Below are positions 7,842-61,974 of a stretch of 64,000 bases of DNA, in pieces. The DNA comes from SAR202 cluster bacterium bin16 (GTDB lineage: Bacteria > Chloroflexota > Dehalococcoidia > Lucifugimonadales > Australimonadaceae): the NCBI GenBank assembly GCA_002238425.1, contig MPMJ01000010.1:4491-68490 (forward strand). Reading direction: 5' to 3'. Made by a program: the position numbers and the translations under genes. Position 1 is the stretch's first letter, and each line of letters opens with the position of its first letter. Below the pieces are notes generated by a model that was not told the origin of the DNA, ran no database searches, and saw only the letters and a list, made by a program, of their open reading frames with translations.

Positions 7842-8015
7842 CAGCCCGCCTCGCTGCGTCTCATGGGGAGAAGGTACCGCTCTCGAAGGGTGGTTGTCTC
7901 CTTGGCTTGTTCCAATAATCCCCCTGACACGTCCGCTCCGGGCAGGATACAGCATAACTCTACTGCCGTCTGTCAACCAGCATGGGAGTCCACAGCTGTC
8001 GGCCGTCAATAGCGG

Positions 8016-8360
8016 ATGGTCGCGCCACCCGACGCGACCGCGGTGTCGCCGCTCACGAAGGACACCGCATCGCTGCACAGCCATGGCCCGCCCAACCTGC
8101 CGCTGGGGTACGTCGACGAGTTCCTCAGCCGCTGGTTCCTGGACTGCATCGAGCGCAACGACAGCGACGCGATGAAGAAGCTCTTCATTGTCGACTCGGA
8201 AACGGTGCGTGCGGGAAGCGGGGAGCTCCGGGCGTGAATTACTGTGGCCGACGCGATGGGCCGTCCCGCCAGCCTCCTGGACTACATAGCCCACGGGCGC
8301 CAAGTGTGCGGTCGGCTACGCCTACTGACCACCCGGTTGATGCCCGTCGAGCGGAGCTCC
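8016..8360 (+). pseudogene. NTF2/SnoaL-like gene remnant with an in-frame TGA at 8235-8237
   Basis: Strong GC3 coding signal. The segment ...LGYVDEFLSRWFLDCIERNDSDAMKKLFIVDSETVRAGSGELRA-TGA-ITVADAMGRPASLLDYIAHGRQV resembles the N-terminal half of SnoaL-like proteins. The coding signal decays before the opposite-strand tRNA. Confidence 0.3.
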
Positions 8361-8412
8361 CGATATGGCCGTGCTATCGGAGGAGGCCGCACTTCCGATG
8401 CGTGCTGGATAT

Positions 8413-8499
8413 TGGTGCCGAGGGTGGGACTCGAACCCACACGCCCTTTATGGACAGCAGATTTTAAGTCCGCGGCGTCTGCCATTCCGCCACCTCGGC
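8413..8499 (-). tRNA. tRNA-Leu (anticodon UAA), type II with long variable arm, CCA encoded
   Basis: Minus-strand sequence: GCCGAGGTGGCGGAATGGCAGACGCCGCGGACTTAAAATCTGCTGTCCATAAAGGGCGTGTGGGTTCGAGTCCCACCCTCGGCACCA. It has a 7-bp acceptor stem, anticodon loop CTTAAAA, the GGTTCGAGTCC T-arm and discriminator A. Confidence 0.9.
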
Positions 8500-8577
8500 A
8501 CGCTCGTACGATTATAAGGGATGAACGCTCGAAGACATCGGGCCGTGCGATTCCTTGCCGCACTCTCGCGTCATCCC

Positions 8578-8583
8578 TAACAT
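8578..8583 (+). promoter_or_regulatory. -10-like TAACAT, 6 nt before the selA ATG
   Basis: Judged on position only. There is no SD upstream of the ATG at 8590. Confidence 0.25.
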
Positions 8584-8589
8584 GAGCAC

Positions 8590-9975
8590 ATGGCCGACAA
8601 CGCGTTCCGAAACCTGCCAGCAGTGAGCGACGTGCTCGCGCAGCCTGCCGTCGCGACGTTGCTTGCCGAGGGGTACCGCCAGGACATCATCACTACTTCC
8701 GTGCGTGAGCACATCGCAAAGGCACGCGCCGCCGTGGCGGATGGCACGGCCCCGCCGACCGCAGCAGAGGTAGCGCACGACGTCGCGAAGGCGACCCAGC
8801 AGAGCGAGGCGGACTGGCCCGTGCATGTGCTCAACGCTACGGGCGTCATCCTGCACACGAACCTCGGACGCGCTCCGCTCTCGCAGGAGAGCATCCGTGC
8901 TGCCGCCGCCGCTTCGGAAGGCTACTCGACGCTCGAACTGGACCTGGAGGACGGCAAGCGCGGCAGCAGGTACGAGGCTATCGCGCGTCTATTGCGGCAG
9001 TTGACCGGCGCGGAAGACGCGATAGCCGTCAATAACAACGCAGGAGCGATGCTGCTCGGTCTTGCGGCGGTCGCCGCGGGACGTGAAGTCATCGTCTCGC
9101 GCGGAGAGGCGAGCGAGATAGGTGGCGGCTTCCGGATACCGGACGTGCTCGCCCAGAGCGGCGCGCGGCTGGTGGAAGTGGGGACGGTCAACCGCACCTA
9201 CGCGACAGACTACGAGCGCGCCATCACGGAGCGGACCGCCGCGCTGCTGGTGGTGCACCGCTCCAACTTCCGCGTGACCGGCTTCACGCACGAGCCGTCG
9301 CTGGCAGACGTCGCAGCAGTGGGTGCAGCGCACGGCGTGCCCCTGTTGCACGATCTCGGTTCCGGCGCACTACTGGACACCGCGCAGTTCGGCATCGGGC
9401 ACGAGACGATGCCGCAAGAGAGCCTCGCGGCGGGCGCTGACCTGGTGTTCTTCTCCGGCGACAAGCTGCTCGGCGGGCCGCAGGCGGGGCTTGCAGCCGG
9501 AGGCGCAGACCTCGTGGCAGCGCTGCGCGCGCACCCGCTCGCACGGGCGTTGCGCGCCGACAAGCTGACGCTCGCGGCGCTGCACCGCACGCTGCTCCAC
9601 TATATACGTGGCGACGCGATGCAGCAGATACCGGTCTGGCGCATGATCGCGGCATCGCAGGAAGAGTTGGGCGAGCGAGCGCGGGCAGTAGCGGAGCAGA
9701 TCGGAGAACTGGCGTCGGTCGTGGATGGCTCGTCGAGGCTCGGCGGGGGCAGCCTGCCGACTGACGAACTGCCGTCGCGGCTCGTGAGCGTCGACGCCTC
9801 GCCTGTGGGCGGCCCCGATGAACTCGCGCGGCGGCTCCGGGCCGGGTCGCCCCCTGTGGTTGCACGTATCGAGGACGAGCGGCTGCTGCTCGACCTGCGC
9901 ACCGTACCCCCGGAGCGTGACACGGAACTGGCGAGGGCTGTCTCGATGGCGTTCGCTACAGCCGCAGACGCCTGA
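8590..9975 (+). CDS. selA: L-seryl-tRNA(Sec) selenium transferase
   Basis: 461 aa. The motifs LNATGVILHTNLGRAPL, VNNNAGAMLL, SRGEASEIGGGFRIPDV and FSGDKLLGGPQAG (PLP lysine) align along the whole length with E. coli SelA as I recall it. Confidence 0.95.
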   Translation: MADNAFRNLPAVSDVLAQPAVATLLAEGYRQDIITTSVREHIAKARAAVADGTAPPTAAEVAHDVAKATQQSEADWPVHVLNATGVILHTNLGRAPLSQESIRAAAAASEGYSTLELDLEDGKRGSRYEAIARLLRQLTGAEDAIAVNNNAGAMLLGLAAVAAGREVIVSRGEASEIGGGFRIPDVLAQSGARLVEVGTVNRTYATDYERAITERTAALLVVHRSNFRVTGFTHEPSLADVAAVGAAHGVPLLHDLGSGALLDTAQFGIGHETMPQESLAAGADLVFFSGDKLLGGPQAGLAAGGADLVAALRAHPLARALRADKLTLAALHRTLLHYIRGDAMQQIPVWRMIAASQEELGERARAVAEQIGELASVVDGSSRLGGGSLPTDELPSRLVSVDASPVGGPDELARRLRAGSPPVVARIEDERLLLDLRTVPPERDTELARAVSMAFATAADA

Positions 9976-11230
9976 ACGACGGTGCGACAGCGGTAACGAG
10001 AACGACCAGCACCAATCCCACCGAGCCTCCCAGCAACCAGGCCGTGGACACACCGTAGTCCTCGGCGATTATCCCAGCGATGACGCCTCCGAGCGGCTGC
10101 ATCCCCACGTCCAGCATGTAGATGCCCATCACGCGCCCGCGCATGTAGTCCGGCGTCACGGACTGCAGGATGGTGTTATTGGTGGTCATCACCATGATGA
10201 AGAAGAGCTGCTGCACGACGAGGATGGCCCAGGCATGCCACCAGATATCCACTTGTGAGAGCGCCAACACGGCCAGCGCGGCTCCCGCGACGCCGAAGAG
10301 CGAGAGCCGTCCCTTGTGTTCGACGGTGTGGAACCGCGCGACGAACACCGCCCCAACGAAACCGCCCACGCCCATGCCGACGTACATGAAGCCGAGCAGC
10401 GCGCCTTCCGAGTCGCCCAGGTCCTCGGCGACGAATACGGGCATCTGGGTCTGGATGAACGCCATGAGCGTGAGCGTCGGTATCAGACTGAGGATGATGG
10501 CGTAGCGGGGCACGGGTTCCCGCGCAACGTAAGCCAATCCTTCTCTCAGGTCGGCGAGCGGCGACTGCTGCTTGCGCCCTTCCCGTCCCTCAGCGAACTC
10601 AGCGCGGAACGGGAGAACGAGCAGAACGACCGCGCCGTACATCACCGCCTGCAGGATGAAGTTCACTTCCGAGCCCAGCAGCGCAATCATGCCGCCCGCG
10701 ATGCCGGGCCCGATCATCCGCATGGAGTTGAACGCCATCGAGTTCAGGGCAATGGCGTTCATGAGCCGCTCGCGCGGCACAGAGTTGCCCACGAGCGTCT
10801 GCCGCAGGGGGTTGTTCAGCGCCCAACCGGCGCCAGTGAGGAACGAGAAGGCGTGCAGGTGCCATAGTTCCACGAATCCCAACTGGAGGATGACGGCGAA
10901 TATGACAGCAAGGAGGGCCAGGTAGAACTGGTCCAGCAGGAGGACGACGCGGCGGTCAAACTTGTCAGCGATGACGCCGGCGATGGGCGCCCCAAGCATC
11001 GGAAGAGCGCGCAGGCCGAGGACGATGGATACCTGCACCGGCGACCCGGTCATCTCGTACGCCAGCCAGCCGAGCGTCACCTGCTGTATCCAGGTACCGG
11101 CGCTCATGAAGAGCGTGCCGAACCAGAGGAGCCGGTAGTTGCGGTAGCGGAGCGCGGAGAACGTCCCGCCCCGGACCCTCGCCTGCCTCGGACGTTCGGA
11201 CGGCTCGGTGGATCGATGAGGCGCGTGCAT
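9956..11230 (-). CDS. MFS transporter (MFS_3 / EntS-like)
   Basis: 424 aa with about 12 hydrophobic helices. N-terminal segment is FSALRYRNYRLLWFGTLFMSAGTWIQQVTLGWLAYEMTGSP. Paralog of 57183..58433. Confidence 0.85.
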   Translation of the reverse strand: MHAPHRSTEPSERPRQARVRGGTFSALRYRNYRLLWFGTLFMSAGTWIQQVTLGWLAYEMTGSPVQVSIVLGLRALPMLGAPIAGVIADKFDRRVVLLLDQFYLALLAVIFAVILQLGFVELWHLHAFSFLTGAGWALNNPLRQTLVGNSVPRERLMNAIALNSMAFNSMRMIGPGIAGGMIALLGSEVNFILQAVMYGAVVLLVLPFRAEFAEGREGRKQQSPLADLREGLAYVAREPVPRYAIILSLIPTLTLMAFIQTQMPVFVAEDLGDSEGALLGFMYVGMGVGGFVGAVFVARFHTVEHKGRLSLFGVAGAALAVLALSQVDIWWHAWAILVVQQLFFIMVMTTNNTILQSVTPDYMRGRVMGIYMLDVGMQPLGGVIAGIIAEDYGVSTAWLLGGSVGLVLVVLVTAVAPSFRRLRL

Positions 11231-11359
11231 GGAGTGGCGTCAAGGTTACCAGCCTCTCGCGTACCGCGCGTTCAGCCCAGTGGATAGCCCCGTACAACCG
11301 GAGCCGCTCAATATGGATGAGAGACGCCTGCTCCGATGGAAAGGTAACCTGTCCGGGCG

Positions 11360-12229
11360 ATGGTGTTCCTATGGGTCGGAGTGGGGGTGGTGAGTGTTTC
11401 GCTCGCCTCCATCTTCATCAGGCTGGCAGACGCGCCCCCGCTCACGGTGGCGGCGTACCGCATGTGCATCGCCACCGTCATCGTCGGCGTAACTGCCGCC
11501 ATTGCAGGGAGGAAGGACTTCGCCGCCGTACGCCGCTCCGACCTTCCGCTCCTCGCGGGGTCCGGGTTCTTCCTCGCGGCGCACTTCGCGCTGTGGATAA
11601 CGTCCCTCTCGCACACGTCGGTGGCGAGTTCGGTGCTGCTCGTCACGACGACGCCCGTATTCGTGGCGATCGGGGCGCACTTCGCCTCGCCGGACAAGGT
11701 GGGGCGGCTCACGGCGCTTGCCGTGGCGGTGAGCATAGCGGGAGGCTTCATCATCGCGGCCGGGGACTGGGCGGAAGGCGAGCGGCACCTGCTGGGCGAC
11801 GCACTCGCGCTCGGGGGAGCGGTGGCAGTCGCGGGCTACCTGCTGGTGGGACGCCGCGTGCGCAGACGCATCCCCACCCTGCCCTACATCACGATCGTGT
11901 ACGCCGTCACAGCGGTCGTGCTGCTGGCGGCGGCGGTGGGAAGCGGGGCGCCGATGTTCGGCCTTCCGGCGGAGTCGTACTTCTGGATGGCGATGGCGGC
12001 GCTGCTCCCGCAGGCGGTGGGGCACTCGCTGCTGAACTGGGCGCTGGGCTACATGCCCGCGGTGAACGTGACGCTCGCGGTACGCGCCGAGCCGGTGCTT
12101 GCGACGCTGATGGCGATCCCGGTGCTGGGCGAGATACCGCCGTGGACGGTGCTGCCCGGCGGAGCTCTGCTGCTGCTGGGCGTCTACATCGCGGTCCGGA
12201 GCGGAGAGACGCGGCGGGCCAACGTATAA
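11360..12229 (+). CDS. EamA/DMT family transporter
   Basis: 289 aa, about 10 TM helices and a two-fold internal repeat typical of EamA domains. Confidence 0.8.
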   Translation: MVFLWVGVGVVSVSLASIFIRLADAPPLTVAAYRMCIATVIVGVTAAIAGRKDFAAVRRSDLPLLAGSGFFLAAHFALWITSLSHTSVASSVLLVTTTPVFVAIGAHFASPDKVGRLTALAVAVSIAGGFIIAAGDWAEGERHLLGDALALGGAVAVAGYLLVGRRVRRRIPTLPYITIVYAVTAVVLLAAAVGSGAPMFGLPAESYFWMAMAALLPQAVGHSLLNWALGYMPAVNVTLAVRAEPVLATLMAIPVLGEIPPWTVLPGGALLLLGVYIAVRSGETRRANV

Positions 12230-12230
12230 T
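12225..12230 (+). promoter_or_regulatory. perfect -10 TATAAT, 9 nt before the recN ATG
   Basis: The TATAAT overlaps the stop codon of the EamA gene. The recN ATG is at 12240 and has no SD. Confidence 0.35.
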
Positions 12231-12239
12231 CGGCGGGCG

Positions 12240-13955
12240 ATGCTGGCAGAACTCACCGTCCGCAATCTTGCCGTCATAGAGGAGACGCGCCTCGTGTTCG
12301 GGCCGGGGTTGAACGTCATCACCGGCGAGACGGGAGCGGGCAAGTCGCTGCTGGTGGACGCGCTCGCGTTCGTGCTTGGCGGCACGGCGGACCGGGGGGT
12401 GATGCGGCGCGGTGCAGACTCCATGAGTGTCGAGACGGTCTTTGCGTTAGATGAGCCACGCACACGGGAAGCGCTCGCTGAATTTGGAGTGGAGGTGGAC
12501 GACGAGGATGGGGTCGCCGTCCTGTACCGCGAGGTGCACCAGGAAGGGCGCACGGTCTCCCGTCTGAACGGTCGCGCCGTGCCGGTGAGCACGCTGCGTG
12601 CGGTCGGCGGGGCGCTGGTGGACATCCACGGGCAGGGTTCGCACCTCTCGCTGCTCGATCCGCGCTTCCAGATGCGGGTGCTGGACGATTTCGGCGGTCT
12701 CGGCGAGCACCGCGACAGCGTCGAATGCGCAGTTGCAGAGGTGCGCCGCGTGCAGGGCGAACTCGGCGAATCGGAAGCGGCGATACGAGAGGCGGAGCAG
12801 CGGCGCGATCTGCTGGCATTCCAGGTGGACGAGATCGAGGCTGCCGCTCCGGTGGACGGGGAGGAGGAGGCGCTGCTGCGCGAGCGCAACGTGCTGGAGC
12901 ATGCCGAGAGCGTGCGCGACGCCTGCGTTGCCGCGTACGAGGCGCTGAGCGAGGGCGACCGCAACGCGGCAGACCTCGCGGCGGAGGCGCTGGACCACCT
13001 GCGGCGCGCTCCGGGCGCCGCTGACGCGCTGGGCGCGCAGATCGAGGCGCTCGAGTCCGCGCTCGTGCAGCTTGGCGACACGGCACGGGAGGTACGACGC
13101 CTCGCGGAGAGCGTCGAGTCGGACCCGGCGCGGCTGGCCGAGATAGAGGAGCGCGTCGAGCTGCTGCGGCGCCTCAAGCGCAAGTACGGAGGCTCCGAAT
13201 CAGCGGTGCTCGCGTTCGGGGAGGATGCCCGTACGCAGCTGGAGCGCATCGAGACGGCTGACGTACGCCGGGGAGAATTGGAGCGCGCGCTGGATGAAGC
13301 GTCTCGGAGCGCGGGAGCGCTTGCGTGGGGGTTGTCCGAAGCGCGGAGGAGTGCGGCGGCTGCGTTGGGCAAGGCGGTCGCGGAGGAACTGCGGGAGGTG
13401 GGGCTGGAGCGTGCGTCGTTCGACATCGCGGTCGAGCAGAACGAGGCGGGCGACGGCCTGCCCGCTCCGGACGGGCGGCGCTACGCCCTCGCCGGGAGCG
13501 GGATAGACAGGGTCACGTTCTCGGCGCGGACGAACCCGGGAGAGGAGTCGCGCCCGCTGGCGAAGGTAGCGTCGGGCGGAGAGACGTCGCGGATGATGCT
13601 GGCCCTCAACAGCGCGCTGCAAACAGTGTCCGGCGCGCCGTCGCTGGTGTTCGACGAGATAGACGCGGGCATCGGAAGCCGCGCCGGGGAGGTGGTGGGG
13701 AGGAAGCTGTGGACGGTCGGCAGGCGGGCGCAGGTGCTGTGCGTGACGCATCTGCCGCAGATAGCCGCGTGGGCGGACACGCACTTCCGGGTGGGGAAGG
13801 CGGTGGAGGACGGGCGGACGTACTCGGGGGCGGAGTCGCTGAGCGAGGAGGAGCGCGTCGGGGAGGTCGCGGGGATGCTGGGGAGCGGGGCGGCGGTGGG
13901 GCAGGTCGCGCGGGAGATGTTGGAGCGCGCGGCGCAGGGGAAGGCGCTCGGGTAG
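12240..13955 (+). CDS. recN: DNA repair protein RecN
   Basis: 571 aa. It starts MLAELTVRNLAVIEETRLVFGPGLNVITGETGAGKSLLVDAL (Walker A), has a long coiled-coil middle and a C-terminal SGGE signature. Confidence 0.95.
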   Translation: MLAELTVRNLAVIEETRLVFGPGLNVITGETGAGKSLLVDALAFVLGGTADRGVMRRGADSMSVETVFALDEPRTREALAEFGVEVDDEDGVAVLYREVHQEGRTVSRLNGRAVPVSTLRAVGGALVDIHGQGSHLSLLDPRFQMRVLDDFGGLGEHRDSVECAVAEVRRVQGELGESEAAIREAEQRRDLLAFQVDEIEAAAPVDGEEEALLRERNVLEHAESVRDACVAAYEALSEGDRNAADLAAEALDHLRRAPGAADALGAQIEALESALVQLGDTAREVRRLAESVESDPARLAEIEERVELLRRLKRKYGGSESAVLAFGEDARTQLERIETADVRRGELERALDEASRSAGALAWGLSEARRSAAAALGKAVAEELREVGLERASFDIAVEQNEAGDGLPAPDGRRYALAGSGIDRVTFSARTNPGEESRPLAKVASGGETSRMMLALNSALQTVSGAPSLVFDEIDAGIGSRAGEVVGRKLWTVGRRAQVLCVTHLPQIAAWADTHFRVGKAVEDGRTYSGAESLSEEERVGEVAGMLGSGAAVGQVAREMLERAAQGKALG

Positions 13956-15933: not shown

Positions 15934-16000
15934 TTCCTGCCTTCGCAGGAACCTCGCCCCCTACCTCTCCCTCGGGGAGAGGTAGACGCGCCTGCGCGTC
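15934..16000. repeat. cluster of three consecutive perfect hairpins (REP/BIME-like)
   Basis: The three hairpins are TTCCTGC-cttc-GCAGGAA (15934-15951), CTACCTCTCCC-tcg-GGGAGAGGTAG (15961-15985) and GACGCG-cctg-CGCGTC (15985-16000). Confidence 0.55.
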
Positions 16001-16388
16001 GGGTGAGGGCCCCTGCAGGTCCGACGTCCCGGCGATCAACCGGTCGTTTCAATTGTCGACACTCAGGAGTGCATGCAGGGCGAATTCTCCTCATTGAACA
16101 GTTGAACGACAAGGCCGTGGCCTGCTTCCGCGTTCTTCTGGTCAATGAGCGCATGAGAAAGGGGTGTGCACACTGCAGCCCATTGAACGCACCTGTGGCT
16201 GGGCCGTGAGCCATACCGGGGTCTATTGGGCGCTGCCGGAATGACGGTCATGCGAACAGCGTACGCGGGTGGGGGGTGGCGGCGGAAGGGGCGGGTGTCA
16301 CTCATCCGGTCCACACATCGCTCGCAGTCGAGTTGCCCTCCTCTCCTGCTGAGCGGGAGAGGGAACGCCCTTCGGCGCACAGTGAGGG

Positions 16389-16450: not shown

Positions 16451-17526
16451 ATGAGCGTGGTGCAGATTGCAGGGGCGCGGCCGGGAGCGGGCGCGACGAC
16501 GGTCGCTTGCGGGCTGGCGTCGGTGCTGCGGTCGGAGGGGAAGCGGGTGACACTCGTGAAGCCGCTGTCGGCTGTTGGCGGCGCTGACCCGGCGTTCCTG
16601 GCGGCGGTGGGGGGGTGGCGTCGGTGCTGCGGTGGGAGGGGAAGCGGGTGACACTCGTGAAGCCGCTGTCGGCTGTTGGCGACGCTGACCCGGCGTTCCT
16701 GGCGTCGTTGGGGGGATCGGCAGAGACGGTGGCGGTCGAGGGGGCGGCGTCGGCGGAGCAGATGGCGGAGGCGGCGAAGATCGTGCAGGGCGCGGCGGCG
16801 GGCGTGGACGTGGTCGTGGTGGAGGGGCCGCCGCTTGCTGACGGGGCAGCGGAGCTGGCGCGGAGCACGGGCGCGGCGGTGGTGGGGGTGCTGGAGTACG
16901 AGCGGACGCTGGGGGCCGGAGCATCCGGGGCGTGGCGCGAAGCGTTCGGCGACGCGCTCGCGGGGTGCGTCGTGAACAAGCGCACGCGGTATGCCGAGCA
17001 CGACGCCTCGGCACGGCTGGCGGTCGAGCTGGAGGACGCGGGGATGCCGGTGCTCGGGGTGCTGCCGGAGGAGCGGCTGCTGCTCGCGCCGACGGTGCAG
17101 CAGGCGGCGGAGCACCTGGGCGGCACGTACTTCACGGGCGAGGAAGGCGGCAGCGAACTGATCGAGCACTTCCTCATCGGCGGGCTCATCACCGAGTGGG
17201 GCGGCAACTACTTCGGGCGTCTACCGAACCAGGCGGTCGTCGTGCGCGGCGGGCGGATCGACATCCAGATGAGCGCACTGAACTTCCCGCTGAACGCACT
17301 GTTCCTGACGGGGTGCGAGACGCCGTCGCAGTACGTGTACCAGCGCGCGGACGACCTGGACGTGCCGCTCATCGCGGTGGGGTCGAACACGCACGACACC
17401 GCAGCGGCGCTGGAGTCGCTGAGCGGCGCGGTGAGCGTGCACCACGCGGCGAAGGCGGAGCGCGCGGGCGCGATGGCGCGGGAGTGCGTCGACGCTTCGG
17501 CGCTGAGCGCGGCACTCGGGGGCTGA
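16451..17526 (+). pseudogene. Pta N-terminal-like protein (degenerate P-loop DTBS-like domain + DRTGG domain), frame broken by a 101-bp tandem duplication
   Basis: ATG 16451 gives MSVVQIAGARPGAGATTVACGLASVLRSEGKRVTLVKPL..., which shifts frame and stops at 16651. ORF 16615..17526 restarts at MASVLRWEGKRVTLVKPL... and carries the DRTGG-type C-terminus. Removing one repeat copy restores a single frame. Confidence 0.7.
16511..16712. repeat. tandem direct duplication, 2 x 101 bp, 96/101 identical
   Basis: I aligned copy 1 (16511-16611) against copy 2 (16612-16712) by hand and found 5 mismatches. The period is not a multiple of 3. Confidence 0.9.
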
Positions 17527-35337: not shown

Positions 35338-35351
35338 GGTTGCAGGGCAAC

Positions 35352-36854
35352 ATGTCACGACTATCCCTCACCACCCTGGTCGCCGCCGCCTTCCTCGTTG
35401 CGGGGTGCACGTCCACGGCCTACACCCCCGAGCCGCCCACGCCGACCCCGACGCACACGCCAACCCCTGGGCCGACGGCCACTCCCACTCCTACGAACAC
35501 CCCTGTCTCCCCCTCCACTACAGACGCCTCCTACGACCCGAACAACACGATGTGGCGCATCTTCAGCACCACCGAACAGACGTTTGAGGCCCTGCAGCTT
35601 GCCCTCGACGACGCGGTTGCGGCGAACGACGTCTCCCAGGTGCCGATCATAGTGGAGATCATGCGTTTCAGCGGCGCCCCGGCGGTGATGGACGCGTACC
35701 GGGAGGCACTCGTGAGCCTCACCGGCCAGGACTTCTGGCTCGATCCGCCTGCGTGGAACGCGGCGATGGAGTGGCTCGGCCCCCGACGGGACGAGTTCCC
35801 TCCGCCGGACGACTACCTGGACTGGAAGGTGAACATCCTCGGGCTCATCGACCCGCGCATGGCGGCATTCTTCACCTCTGCGCCCGGTTCGGAGCGCATC
35901 GATCTCACGGAGGCCGTCTGGGGCGGCGTGCGCACCGACGGCATCCCCGACCTGCAGTTCGCGCCCACGCTCACGCCGGACGAGGCGGACTACCTCAACC
36001 CGCGTGACCGCGTATTCGGCGTCTCCATCAACGGCGAGCACCGCGCCTACCCGCTGCGCATCATGAACCCGCACGAGATGGCGAACGACCGGTTAGGAGG
36101 CGAGCCGATAGCGCTCGCCTACTGAACGCTCTGCTTCAGCGGGATCGTGTATTCCGCAAAGATAGACGGGGAACCCACCACGTTCGGCACGTCCGGCATG
36201 CTCTACCAGAGCAACAAGCTGATGTACGACCGCACGACGAACTCGATATGGAACCAGTTCACCGGCGAGCCCGTCGTCGGCCCGCTGGCGGACAGCGGTA
36301 TCAAGCTCGACTTCTTCGCGTCCGTGCTGACGACGTGGGAGGAGTGGCTGGCAGAACACCCGGACACCACGGTCCTGAACGTCGATACCGGCGTCTACTC
36401 ACCGACCGTCTATGCCCACGAATGGGAGCCGCAGGCCATCTACTTCGACTACTTCTCGTCACCCAGGACGATGTTCCCGGTCTTCAACCGGGACGAGGCG
36501 CTGCTCCCCAAGGAGACGGTCATCGGCGTGGGCATCAACGACGACTACAAGGCGTACCCCGTCTCCGCCTTCGCCGACGAGCCCGTCATCAACGACGTGG
36601 TGGGCGGGCAGGAGATCGTCATCGCAGGGTCGAGCACCTGGGGCACGGGCAGGGTCTACGAGCGGGGTGGACGAACGTTCGCCAAGGAAGGCGACGGCCT
36701 GCGGGACCAGGATGGGAACTCGTGGACCATCGGCGAGGATGCGCTGAACCGGGCGGACGGCGCCGAGACGCTGGCGCGCATACCGACGATAACGTCGTTC
36801 TGGCACGGATGGTTCTCGTTCCACCCGGACACCGCCCGCTACGAGAGCAGCTAG
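35352..36854 (+). CDS. DUF3179 domain lipoprotein, candidate selenoprotein (in-frame TGA 36123-36125 read as Sec, U-T-L-C motif)
   Basis: Track ORFs 35340..36125 and 36147..36854 share one frame, and only this TGA lies between them. The DUF3179-like sequence runs across the join: RAYPLRIMNPHEMANDRLGGEPIALAY-U-TLCFSGIVYSAKIDGEPTTFGTSGMLYQSNKLMYDRTTNSIWNQ. The N-terminus MSRLSLTTLVAAAFLVAGC is a lipobox signal peptide. A hairpin follows the TGA. selA is in the window. Confidence 0.7.
36134..36161 (+). promoter_or_regulatory. candidate bacterial SECIS hairpin
   Basis: The upper stem is GCGGGAU (36139-45) / AUUCCGC (36151-57), 7 bp including one G-U pair. The loop is CGUGU. The lower stem is CUU/AAG with a small internal loop. 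The stem starts 13 nt after the UGA. Confidence 0.45.
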
Positions 36855-42985: not shown

Positions 42986-45499
42986 TTGGCACCAGTCCGT
43001 TCAGCATCATTTCTACTGTTATGCATCAGCCTAGTTGTACTGATATGCGGGTGCGGTGACGTCTCGGCCTCATCCGTGAAGGGAATTCCCGAGGCTCCGC
43101 CAACGCCTACTTCGCTTCCTACGCCGACTCCAACGCTTACGCCCACGCCTACCAGTACGCCTGTACCAACCACTAAGCCTCTTCCTACGCCTACTCCCAC
43201 GCCGACCGTCACGCCTACTCCAACCCCGGCTACACCTCCTACCCCTACACCCACTCGCGTCCCAACTCCTACGCCTACCATCATGCCGACGCCCACCCCA
43301 ACCCCTATGCCTACGGCAACGCCTCGGCCCCCGTTCGATGCAACTCCACCTGGGCCACCGCCGACTCCCAGCCACGGGCGAAGGTCGAATCCGACCTCCA
43401 CGCCCACTCCCACGGCGACCCCGACCCCAACGTCCACGCCTACGCCCACACCTACTCCTACGTCAACCCCCACACCTACGCCTACCGCTACTCCCACACC
43501 TACCGCTACTCCGACGCCCACGCCTACGCCGACCCCCACGCCGACACCAATCCCGATGCCGATCGTAGAAGGGTCGAAGCATGGTGTTGGAGCGGGCGGG
43601 CTCCACTCCTGCGCGCTGGAGGCTGACGGCACGCCGGTCTGTTGGGGTGACGACGGAGCCGGTCAAGCATCGCCTCCTGCAGGCACGACACTGGCTACCC
43701 TGAGCGCCGGTTCAAGCCATAGCTGCGGGCTCAAGGCGGACGGCTCACCCGTCTGCTGGGGAGAGGACGACAGCGGACAGGCCTCCCCTCCCTCCGACAA
43801 GACGTTTGTCACTATCAGCGCCGGGTTCATCCATACCTGTGCACTGGAGAGCGATGGCACACCGGTCTGCTGGGGTGACGACGAGAAAGGGCAGTCGTCG
43901 CCTCCCGCAGGGTCGGCATTCACCGCGATCAGCGCAGGGGAGACTCACACCTGCGCCCTTACTGCTACTGGTACCGCTGTCTGTTGGGGCGGCGTGGACA
44001 ACGACCATGGCCAGGTATCGCCACCGGGGGACACCACCTTCATTGCGATAAACGCAGGCTACCTCCATACCTGTGGCATCAAGTCGGACGGTCCCATCGC
44101 CTGCTGGGGGTTGGATAACAAGAATCAGGTGTCCGGTGTTCCTACGGGCCAGACGTTCGCGTCGCTCTCGGGCGGGCGGCGCCATAGCTGCGCCCTGATT
44201 TCCGACGGGACGCCAGTCTGCTGGGGCGAGGACGATGATGGCCAGTCCACTCCTCCGGCCGGTTCGAAGTTCGTTGAGATAAGCGCAGGAGAGAAGCACA
44301 CCTGCGCACTGCAGGAGGACGGCACGCCGGCTTGCTGGGGCAACGACGACTCGGGGCAATCATCGCCGTCCAGTTTGGACCCTACTCCTACCCCTACCCC
44401 TACTCCTACGCCTACGCCTACGCCTACGCCTACTCCTACACCAACGCCTACTCCTACACCAACGCCTACTCCTACACCAACGCCTACTCCTACACCAACG
44501 CCTACTCCTACACCAACGCCTACTCCTACACCAACGCCTACTCCCACACCAACGCCCAATCCTGCGCCCACACCGACTCCTACCCCTACGCCTACGCCTA
44601 CGCCCACGCCTACACCTACTCCCACGCCGACACCGACTCCAACTCCCACACCTACGCCTACCCCCACGCCTACGCCTGCGTCGACTCCGTCCTACGCCGC
44701 TATCGCAACGGGCGGTGTCCATTCGTGTGCGCTCAAATCAGACGGCTCGCCGGTCTGCTGGGGCAGCGATGGGGCGGGACAGATTACACCGCCGTCCGAT
44801 AAGACGTTCACGGCCATAACTGCGAGGGGGGCGTACACATGCGCACTCGAGCACGACGGCACGCCGGCCTGCTGGGGAGACGACGACTACGAACAATCGT
44901 CGCCGCCGTCAGACAAGACGTTCACGGCCATCAGCGCTGGGTACATCCACGCATGCGCGCTGGAGAGCAACGGCACGCCCGTCTGTTGGGGAAGCGATGA
45001 GGACAAAAGGGCATCCCCGCCGGCGAACACGACGTTCACGGCGATCAGCGGGGGTGAAACACATACGTGCGGACTGAAAGCGGACGGGAAGGTCGAGTGC
45101 TGGGGGAACGGCGACCACGATAAGTTGACACCGCCGGAGAGCGAGACGTTCAAGGCAGTGAGCGCGGGCTACCTGCACACCTGCGGCATCAAAACGGACG
45201 GCTCCATAGCCTGCTGGGGGTACTCCAGTAAATGGAACCTGTTGTCCGCGCCAGCAGGCAACACATTCGTTTCGATATCGTGCGCGAGCCGACACAGCTG
45301 CGCACTCAAGGATGACGGCACTCCAGTCTGCTGGGGCGACAATACGCATGGGCGGGCGTTGCCGCCGGAAGACTCGACGTTCATGGCGGTCGCCGCGAGC
45401 AACACGCACACCTGCGCGCTGCAAGAGGACGGCGCTCCAATCTGCTGGGGCGACGACAGCGAAGATCAGTCGTCGCCGCCGGAGGATGAGGAGTGGTGA
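42986..45499 (+). CDS. secreted/lipid-anchored protein with two 7-bladed compact RCC1-like beta-propellers separated by Pro-Thr linkers
   Basis: 837 aa, TTG start (the first in-frame start). Signal peptide is [23 protein letters not shown]. It carries 14 repeats of about 38 aa with the pattern H[ST]C[AG]L..DG.P.CWG.D..GQ..PP. Confidence 0.8.
43094..43561 (+). repeat. Pro-Thr-rich low-complexity coding tract (linker 1, about 156 aa)
   Basis: Degenerate CCN-ACN hexamer repeats inside the RCC1-like CDS. Confidence 0.9.
44381..44690 (+). repeat. Pro-Thr coding tract (linker 2, about 103 aa) containing a 7 x 18-bp tandem repeat at 44429-44554
   Basis: The unit CCTACTCCTACACCAACG is repeated 6 times perfectly. 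A seventh copy has one mismatch. Confidence 0.9.
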
Positions 45500-60911: not shown

Positions 60912-61634
60912 TCACCGTTCGTCGGGTTGCACCTGCTGTTGCAGCACCACGACGTCGTAGCCGAGCGATGCGAGCGGGATCCCGTCCGTGTCGAAGAGCT
61001 CCGCCTCGAAGCGGGGGGCCGGGCGAACGTTGCCGCCGAGCACGGGCAGCGTGCCGGAGAAGACGGCGGTGCCCGCGCCGGGGTCCGGGCCGATGAGTTC
61101 GAGCAGCCGCTCGGGGCGCATTAGCTGGGAGAGCGTTCCGTCCTGGTAGTCCTCCAGTTCACCGCCTTCGCTTACGCGGCTGCGGAGGCGCAGGTCGTCC
61201 CAGCGGGGCAGGAGGTCGTCGAGACGCCAGATCTGCCTGCTGAGTATCTTGGGGTAGATCTGCTTGGACTTCTCGATGGAGAGGCTCTCGAGGCCACGGT
61301 CGGTGTGGTCGCTGCCGATGCAGACGAAGATGTCGTCCCTGCCGATGAGCAGCACGTACTCGGCCTCGCCGGACGACGTGCCGTCGTACGCGTAGACCGT
61401 CCCGTCCACCTGCAGCACCTGCGGGTTCGCTACGAATATCCACGGCACGTGCGCCGGGCGCGGCACGCCCAGGAGCGCAAGCTCGGCGATGTGCTCCTCC
61501 ACCGCCGCAGGGTCGCGGCCCGTGTAGCCACCGGCGAGCAGCCTGCGAGCGAGGAAGCGCATCGGCGACCCCGCGTGGTCGAACGTGAGCATCCGGCTGG
61601 GTCTCTTCGTTACTTCTGTCCCGTTAGCGTTCAT
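60912..61634 (-). CDS. DUF2848 domain protein
   Basis: I trimmed the ORF to the ATG at 61632-61634. It has LLAGGYTGRD...HIAELALLGVPRP...GEAEYVLL. The family call is from memory. Confidence 0.65.
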   Translation of the reverse strand: MNANGTEVTKRPSRMLTFDHAGSPMRFLARRLLAGGYTGRDPAAVEEHIAELALLGVPRPAHVPWIFVANPQVLQVDGTVYAYDGTSSGEAEYVLLIGRDDIFVCIGSDHTDRGLESLSIEKSKQIYPKILSRQIWRLDDLLPRWDDLRLRSRVSEGGELEDYQDGTLSQLMRPERLLELIGPDPGAGTAVFSGTLPVLGGNVRPAPRFEAELFDTDGIPLASLGYDVVVLQQQVQPDER

Positions 61635-61974
61635 AGTGCCGCACCTCAAACGTCCGGCATCCGTCGGGCGATATCCAGGGACCATGAGGCATGCCGGGCG
61701 GGCGGCAGGCGTACATGCCGGCAGTGAACGTCTCGTTCAGCGGGATGTCGTGGATGCTGCCCTCGATGATCCAGACCTCCTCCCAGAAGTCGTGCACCTG
61801 CGGGCCCATCGCTGAGGTGTCGGTGCCCGGCTCGAACCGCAGCAGGCGCGTGTAGTCGCCGCTCACGTCGTCGCGCGAGAGTATCTGCTGACTGAGGCCT
61901 TCCACCGGCGGGATGGGCTCGCTCGGGATGCCCGAGGGATCGAAGAACTCCAACTCAGGTTTCGCCACGTTCAC
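61624..61974 (-). CDS. cupin domain protein (ChrR-like cupin)
   Basis: 116 aa with YTRLLRFEPGTDT...HDFWEEVWIIEGS. It overlaps the next gene by 11 nt. Confidence 0.7.
   Translation of the reverse strand: MNVAKPELEFFDPSGIPSEPIPPVEGLSQQILSRDDVSGDYTRLLRFEPGTDTSAMGPQVHDFWEEVWIIEGSIHDIPLNETFTAGMYACRPPGMPHGPWISPDGCRTFEVRHYER

Follow-up and report, generated by a model that had tools for sequence, protein, structure and literature searches.

An internal UGA codon almost certainly encodes selenocysteine in a DUF3179 lipoprotein gene of a Dehalococcoidia bacterium

The domain family DUF3179 (PF11376) is listed among the selenoprotein families, with the motif UxxC/T, in the tables of two reviews (PMC9312934, from 2022, and PMC13188914, from 2026), where it is exemplified by MBW1804167.1 and MDJ0986319.1. 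Both reviews credit the family to Zhang and Gladyshev 2007 (Nucleic Acids Research, PMC1976440; the delta-1 symbiont of Olavius algarvensis), in which, judging by the order of the tables, it would be the family named "OS_HP1". Here we describe a DUF3179 gene in a stretch of 64,000 nucleotides (hereafter the window; contig MPMJ01000010.1, positions 4,491 to 68,490) from SAR202 cluster bacterium bin16, a metagenome-assembled genome (MAG) of the Dehalococcoidia (Chloroflexota). At positions 35352..36854 of the window (plus strand), two adjacent "DUF3179" genes are in fact one gene, and its internal UGA almost certainly codes for selenocysteine (Sec). A first-pass annotation of the sequence had proposed a UxxC selenoprotein at this place and had taken DUF3179 to be undescribed as a selenoprotein family; on the latter point it was wrong, as the two tables show.

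The decoding of UGA as Sec in bacteria involves a hairpin in the coding region, the bacterial selenocysteine insertion sequence (bSECIS). The consensus bSECIS model is that of Zhang and Gladyshev 2005, as summarised in PMC13188914. It specifies an apical loop of 3-9 nt, an upper stem of 4-16 bp, and 16-37 nt between the UGA and the loop. A G is expected in the first two loop positions, usually followed by G or U, and the minimum free energy (MFE) should be at most -7.5 kcal/mol.

One reading frame across an internal UGA

The gene is a single frame of 500 codons, from ATG 35352 to TAG 36852-36854. It contains just one in-frame stop, TGA 36123-36125, at residue 258. This codon is all that separates two open reading frames (ORFs), 35340..36125 and 36147..36854, which lie in the same frame, as the first-pass annotation had noted and as we confirmed from the sequence. 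Gene callers and the public annotation cut the locus at this point into proteins of 257 and 235 residues, and relatives in GenBank are likewise recorded as two proteins (e.g., MYK33849.1 and MYK33850.1). The read-through junction is GGEPIALAY-(TGA)-TLCFSGIVYSAK. With Cys placed at the TGA, the PF11376 profile gives one match across it, covering residues 196-494 (35937..36833) and positions 2-292 of the 292 in the profile. The match covers the full model at 252.4 bits (E = 8e-75), above the gathering threshold of 27. Neither half holds a complete domain alone, in line with the earlier suggestion of one continuous DUF3179 domain over the UGA.

Of the 120 best full-length homologs, 117 have Cys in the TGA column, as part of the motif LAY-C-TL-C; the three exceptions read W..C, D..T, and S..V. 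The UGA thus stands on the first conserved Cys of the motif, as the first-pass annotation had supposed, and gives U-T-L-C at residues 258-261. This agrees with the U-x-x-C/T motif listed for the catalogued DUF3179 selenoproteins, whose Sec may stand in the same column.

The TGA is found at the same base in six other assemblies made from separate read sets (ERZ27241794, ERZ27241795, ERZ27241796, SRR8092756, SRR8093131, and SRR8092710), with 0 mismatches in the 150 nt compared around it. A search with the C-terminal half returned almost exclusively fragments of 235-255 residues, at 96% down to 54% identity, which reads as the signature of many genes cut at the same place. Contigs sampled at one genome per species yielded 80 loci in 79 genomes, nearly all labelled Dehalococcoidia or Chloroflexota. 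Together with second paralogs on three loci and the window gene, they make 84 non-redundant clade genes. All 84 have TGA at the exact homologous codon, with conserved protein sequence on both sides. The frame is open for about 250 codons each side of it, except in L013, where the end of the contig cuts the upstream frame. Orthologs of 95-96% identity are located on the closed chromosomes OZ242348.1 and OZ242210.1. A metagenome scan seeded with Cys forms added 15 more divergent genes with TGA at this codon and 47 genes with TGC or TGT.

The codons that follow the TGA behave as protein-coding sequence. In all 84 orthologs, codons +1 to +3 encode Thr, Leu, and Cys without exception, yet their synonymous sites vary, e.g., Thr +1 is encoded by ACG (55), ACC (22), ACT (5), or ACA (2), and Cys261 by TGC (79) or TGT (5). 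Fixed amino acids with synonymous variation right after the UGA argue that the ribosome reads on in the same frame. The median ratio of nonsynonymous to synonymous substitution rates (dN/dS) is 0.29 in the 190 codons before the TGA and 0.28 in the part after it, which indicates equal purifying selection on both halves. TGA is nonetheless an ordinary stop in this genome. It terminates 16 of the 51 ordinary genes on the contig and also closes many of the DUF3179 orthologs. The code has thus not been reassigned, and recoding of the in-frame UGA calls for a local signal.

Some genomes encode more than one such gene. Two Sec-containing DUF3179 paralogs are present in L043 (8130 and 14346), L048 (8160 and 14517), and L061 (8130 and 12608), and L058 and L073, both on OZ240229.1, are another two Sec-form paralogs. 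Some of these pairs lie within about 6 kb, and both copies keep the TGA and the hairpin described below. One clade gene (JAPOVR010000002.1; 58% identity, with TGA and hairpin intact) comes from a genome labelled "Actinomycetes bacterium", which may reflect an error of binning or taxonomy, or a transfer.

The splitting of these genes is systematic. GenBank and the protein catalogues of metagenomes record them throughout the clade as a pair of "DUF3179 domain-containing proteins", and the C-terminal fragments amount to at least about 120 clusters at 90% identity. Counts of selenoproteomes and domain statistics for the Dehalococcoidia are distorted as a result.

The downstream hairpin and the decoding of the UGA

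The local signal is probably a hairpin at 36139-36157 (5' arm GCGGGAU, 36139-36145; loop CGUGU, 36146-36150; 3' arm AUUCCGC, 36151-36157). Its stem starts 13 nt and its loop 20 nt after the UGA. The first-pass annotation had described this element and judged its distance right for a SECIS, and its geometry indeed agrees with the bSECIS model: the stem has 7 bp, the spacing is 20 nt, and the loop of 5 nt has G at position 2 followed by U. The MFE is -9.2 kcal/mol over 40 nt and -13.9 kcal/mol over 45 nt, and that of the bare 19-nt hairpin is -7.3 kcal/mol.

The hairpin has left a clear mark on codon usage. Codons +5 to +10, which lie under it, are nearly devoid of synonymous variation in the 84 orthologs: ACC in 55/55, GGA or GGG only, ATC in 78 and ATA in 6, GTG in 83/84, TAT in 84/84, and TCC in 83/84. 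Equally conserved residues elsewhere vary freely, such as the Tyr at -1 (TAC in 43, TAT in 38). For comparison, normalised codon entropy has a background median of 0.68, with values of 0.15 or less in just 4.5% of the conserved codons. RNAalifold independently gives the same helix of 6 bp, whose core pairs are all at least 99% paired. The offset of the hairpin is identical in every TGA gene, and its loop is CGUGU or CGGGU. In the divergent TGA genes, compensatory changes replace the closing C-G by A-U or U-A, an internal G-C by C-G, and an A-U or G-U by G-C. Four of the seven stem pairs are changed on both sides in the combined alignment of 40 TGA forms, where the covariation score of 0.185 was reached by none of 500 shuffles (0.097) and slid registers scored at most 0.054. 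No positionally conserved hairpin was found in the 47 Cys-form genes. The comparison therefore gives good support to the view that UGA 258 is translated and that a hairpin of SECIS geometry is present in all of the TGA forms and in none of the Cys forms. The 99 TGA and 47 Cys forms make an unusually clean comparative dataset for a bacterial SECIS and could become a covariance model.

The window also encodes a component of the Sec machinery. The ORF at 8590..9975 (plus strand), pointed out as selA in the first-pass annotation, matches the TIGR00474 equivalog for L-seryl-tRNA(Sec) selenium transferase with 522 bits (cutoff 267.9). We know of no role for selA besides making Sec-tRNA(Sec). The gene stands alone (8413..9975 region) and does not form a cluster with selB or selC, with a tRNA-Leu(UAA) gene on one side and a major facilitator superfamily transporter gene on the other. 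This tRNA is long-armed and was considered as tRNA-Sec, but its anticodon is UAA. ARAGORN, applied to the window and to 60 loci, found no tRNA-Sec. The PurM-like gene upstream of the DUF3179 gene was likewise considered as selD and is thiL (TIGR01379, 264 bits; the selD model gives 82 bits for a cutoff of 125). Searches with tblastn of all window and related DNA, using approximate queries for Escherichia coli SelB and SelD, matched thiL only.

Four further same-frame TGA junctions in the window passed our scan for candidates. The only one of the four examined, at 17524, is the ordinary boundary of two adjacent called genes. A related genome (L177; ENA ERZ19489113 s808.ptg000975c, a chromosome of 3.0 Mb) has an AhpC/TSA peroxiredoxin-like gene at 2301-2843 that is split by an in-frame TGA at 2433 (FTDN-U-TSQ). 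Downstream lies a hairpin whose loop, AGUAUAA, starts 25 nt after the UGA and has G-U at its positions 2-3. The gene probably encodes a further selenoprotein that has been mis-annotated.

Several observations weigh against Sec at this codon or against the chemistry proposed for it. The folding energy of the hairpin is unexceptional (z = -0.67 in a sequence of 67% GC), and we rejected MFE as a discriminator, given that Cys forms fold more stably on average (-14.6 versus -10.3 kcal/mol); the significance of the hairpin comes from the comparative data, not from energy. No Rfam family matches it in scans of the window and of 36050-36260 (E ≤ 10). Neither the window, nor positions 244-71939 of the contig (DAOUHK010000067.1, MAG GCA_034428675.1), nor about 1.3 Mb of related flanks yielded selB, selC, or selD, which in a fragmented MAG is absence of evidence only. 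One relative (L001, 10001-11329; protein P0101; ENA ERZ25766727 contig ctg350188_2x_l) has TGG (Trp) at the Sec codon with the hairpin sequence unchanged; its N-terminus looks frameshifted, and the TGG reflects an assembly error at low coverage or else Sec was lost recently. The status of DUF3179 as a selenoprotein family is purely computational in the literature. Finally, the chemistry that we propose below draws no support from operon context or from a structural homolog in the PDB.

The failure to find these genes and the TGG variant, which is one base away from TGA, would also suit a read-through that does not involve SECIS or Sec. A near-cognate or suppressor tRNA for Trp, Cys, or Arg might decode the UGA, or the hairpin might stimulate a programmed read-through. 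Cys can moreover be inserted at Sec codons under selenium limitation. Several facts speak against such decoding. The homologs have a catalytic-type Cys, the first of a CxxC, at the place of the UGA, which makes the classic Sec/Cys pair, and the hairpin fits the published bSECIS geometry with G-U in its loop. The genome encodes selA, and a related genome carries the second TGA-interrupted redox gene with a similar element. The class is also known to be rich in selenoproteins: the top ten organisms of BSepDB include Dehalococcoidia MAGs with 46-49 selenoprotein genes (PMC13326102). We thus regard read-through independent of SECIS as improbable.

Still less probable is that the locus is a truly split gene, in which an exported N-terminal piece of 257 residues ends at the UGA and a C-terminal piece of 235 residues starts at GTG 36147, both being functional. 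This matches the output of gene callers and the GenBank annotation of the locus and its relatives, and the GTG does lie 8 codons after the TGA. Yet, the 7 codons from TGA to GTG are conserved as protein with synonymous variation and include the second Cys of the motif, and translation immediately 3' of the UGA rules out re-initiation at that GTG. The GTG itself encodes a Val within the conserved hairpin and is not a start codon served by a ribosome-binding site, and a separate C-terminal piece would lack a signal peptide. Both PF11376 and the AlphaFold2 model presented below give one domain, in which the break falls in the middle of a beta hairpin, and the full-length Cys forms are continuous.

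Lastly, the gene might be decaying and the TGA a nonsense mutation or an artefact of sequencing or assembly. One in-frame stop in a MAG usually betrays one or the other, and the TGG and probable frameshift of L001 might point the same way. This explanation is hardly credible and, as far as sequence data reach, refuted: independent assemblies show TGA and not the TGC or TGT of a sequencing error, the 84 clade genes and 15 metagenome genes have TGA at the homologous codon, and related genomes conserve the frame strictly rather than decaying independently, with no further stops or frameshifts and dN/dS equally low on both sides.

We conclude that 35352..36854 is very probably a true Sec-decoding gene, encoding a DUF3179 lipoprotein of 500 residues.

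The protein and its proposed centre

The N-terminus of the protein is MSRLSLTTLVAAAFLVAG followed by Cys, after which comes a Pro/Thr-rich linker of about 40 residues. The predicted signal peptide (35352..35408; MSRLSLTTLVAAAFLVAGC) ends in the lipobox L-V-A-G-C (residues 15-19, 35394-35408), which matches the pattern [LVI][ASTVI][GAS]C and makes Cys19 the predicted lipidated N-terminus of the mature protein. The linker, recognised by its composition, spans residues 20-58 (35409..35525). Lipobox and Pro-Thr stalk, both mentioned in the first-pass annotation, are thus present in the sequence, and the former recurs: a lipobox-like motif matches near the N-terminus of 64 of the 84 orthologs under a naive choice of start codons.

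We modelled the structure with AlphaFold2 on a natural Cys homolog, P0088, which is 52% identical to the window protein. The model (predicted local distance difference test, pLDDT, of 93; predicted template modelling score of 0.91) has an all-helical N-terminal domain, with helices H2-H122 at pLDDT >90, followed by the beta-rich DUF3179 domain. In the window protein the helical domain, which has no Pfam family, would correspond to residues ~59-195 (35526..35936). Its matches to armadillo repeats in a profile search of the PDB are weak and non-significant (E ~0.1). Two homologous beta modules, each of about 120 residues, make up the DUF3179 domain as an internal tandem duplication: residues 219-342 (36006-36377) align to residues 387-497 (36510-36842) with 29% identity in BLASTP (E = 3e-11). 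The U/CxxC is in module 1 only, and the opposite position of module 2 reads "GSST". In the model of P0088, the CTLC (residues 200-203) lies in the tight turn between strands E193-200 and E205-210. As modelled, the CxxC is therefore a beta-hairpin "knuckle" and not the helix-capping CxxC of thioredoxin folds. We found no related solved structure, as the sequence profile returned nothing significant from the PDB and the best Foldseek match had E = 0.2. There was also no conserved operon partner in 80 genome loci and 62 metagenome loci of the Sec clade and the wider family.

We propose the following mechanism. A ribosome reaching UGA codon 258 (36123..36125) would meet the hairpin 13 nt downstream, whose 7-bp stem and CGUGU loop would recruit SelB-GTP-Sec-tRNA(Sec). 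Sec would be inserted at position 258, and translation would run on to TAG 36852-36854. The lipobox signal peptide would direct export and lipidation at Cys19, and the Pro/Thr linker would keep both the helical domain and the DUF3179 beta domain, with its two modules, at the outer surface of the cytoplasmic membrane. In the tight beta-hairpin turn of module 1, Sec258 and Cys261 (36132..36134; Cys in 100% of the 84 orthologs and the likely resolving residue) would form the functional centre. They would most likely act as a selenenylsulfide/selenol-thiol redox couple, or alternatively as a site for a soft metal or metalloid.

The choice between these chemistries is finely balanced, and we would give thiol/selenol redox rather than metal binding about an even chance. 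We lean towards redox, since a Sec/Cys pair in a UxxC motif typically marks a redox protein. The UxxT variants of DUF3179, moreover, keep a single nucleophile, which is more apt for catalysis than for chelating a metal. The knuckle geometry and a weak Rieske-like similarity (see below) make a soft-metal or metalloid site a serious alternative.

The chromosome of 3.0 Mb mentioned above (L177) also has, at 8000-13257, an operon-like run of a DgaE-like pyridoxal phosphate enzyme, a FocA-like channel of the formate/nitrite family, and a Cys-form DUF3179 gene, with gaps of 13 and 10 nt. A Sec-form DUF3179 paralog then stands in tandem, with its TGA at 12493. The DgaE-like enzyme has a SelA-related fold and scores below cutoffs. 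This operon, seen in one genome, is a possible lead to the substrate of DUF3179.

A broader view, which we put forward only tentatively and consider rather unlikely to hold in full, is that the Sec form is the dominant form of DUF3179, vertically maintained in a large Dehalococcoidia radiation, many of whose members are apparently associated with sponges according to isolate names. Genomes can encode several paralogs, and Cys/Sec pairs in tandem do occur. The surface-anchored UxxC knuckle, distinct from thioredoxin, would then be a new kind of extracytoplasmic selenoenzyme, or a protein that handles selenium or metalloids, with the operon of FocA-like, DgaE-like, and DUF3179 genes pointing to its substrate.

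Among the other features of the window, an ORF of 837 residues at 42986..45499 (plus strand) is left almost empty by gene callers. It combines a lipobox (LICGC) with (Pro-Thr)n linkers of great length and with RCC1-like repeats (HxCAL..DG.P.CWG..) arranged in two blocks, and is probably a real gene whose low-complexity Pro-Thr repeats defeated gene calling. A match to the Rfam whalefall-1 small RNA at 15961..16010 (plus strand) is just over the gathering score (40.5 bits for 37). It is intergenic, between the divergent genes for ribosomal protein L21 and a CbiA/DRTGG-domain protein. For the ORF at 60912-61685 (minus strand) we found no exact product on record.

Comparison with known systems

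The closest described systems are the catalogued DUF3179 selenoproteins. They share with the window protein the Pfam domain, the U-x-x-C, a Cys in the homologs without Sec, and a SECIS-like stem-loop just downstream of the UGA, and in both cases the evidence is computational. The original report of 2007 concerned a few genes in a deltaproteobacterial symbiont of a worm, whereas the gene studied here comes from a Dehalococcoidia MAG and belongs to a large Sec clade (79 species genomes) marked by a lipobox, a stalk rich in Pro and Thr, an additional helical domain, and a SECIS that hardly varies.

The hairpin resembles the SECIS of the E. coli fdhF type and the bSECIS model in lying within the coding region just 3' of the UGA, in its small apical loop with G then U near the 5' side, and in its spacing of 20 nt, within the range of 16-37. 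It differs in its loop, CGUGU or CGGGU, in its short conserved stem (6-8 bp), and in that we saw no conserved bulged U.

Among extracytoplasmic oxidoreductases of the thioredoxin fold (DsbA/DsbE/TlpA-like, including selenoprotein forms), one finds the same combination of export, membrane anchoring (here predicted), and U/CxxC, and a selenenylsulfide couple would be plausible in both. The motif in DUF3179 is however modelled in the turn of a beta hairpin and not at the N-terminus of a helix, and Foldseek with the P0088 model returned no thioredoxin-fold match in the PDB. The metal "knuckles" of Rieske proteins and rubredoxins are similar in having a CxxC on a beta-hairpin turn within a module resembling a beta sandwich. 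The sole Foldseek matches with appreciable probability (0.63-0.66) were indeed the Rieske ferredoxins 3gce and 2qpz, over ~90-110 residues; these matches are non-significant (E ~0.65) and concern one subdomain, with template modelling scores to the target of 0.49-0.56. The ligand set CxH...CxxH of Rieske proteins is absent from DUF3179, which has a single CxxC.

The gene is hence a well-supported member of an already catalogued selenoprotein family and requires no new category. What it adds to this family is a member from the Dehalococcoidia, the size and uniformity of the Sec clade within that class, a SECIS backed by covariation, the systematic mis-annotation of one gene as two, and an architecture of duplicated modules with the motif on a beta-hairpin turn. 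A conserved Sec-Cys pair on such a turn, in a protein predicted to be anchored in the membrane, narrows the hypotheses on function to extracytoplasmic redox or soft-metal chemistry, and names the residues to mutate.

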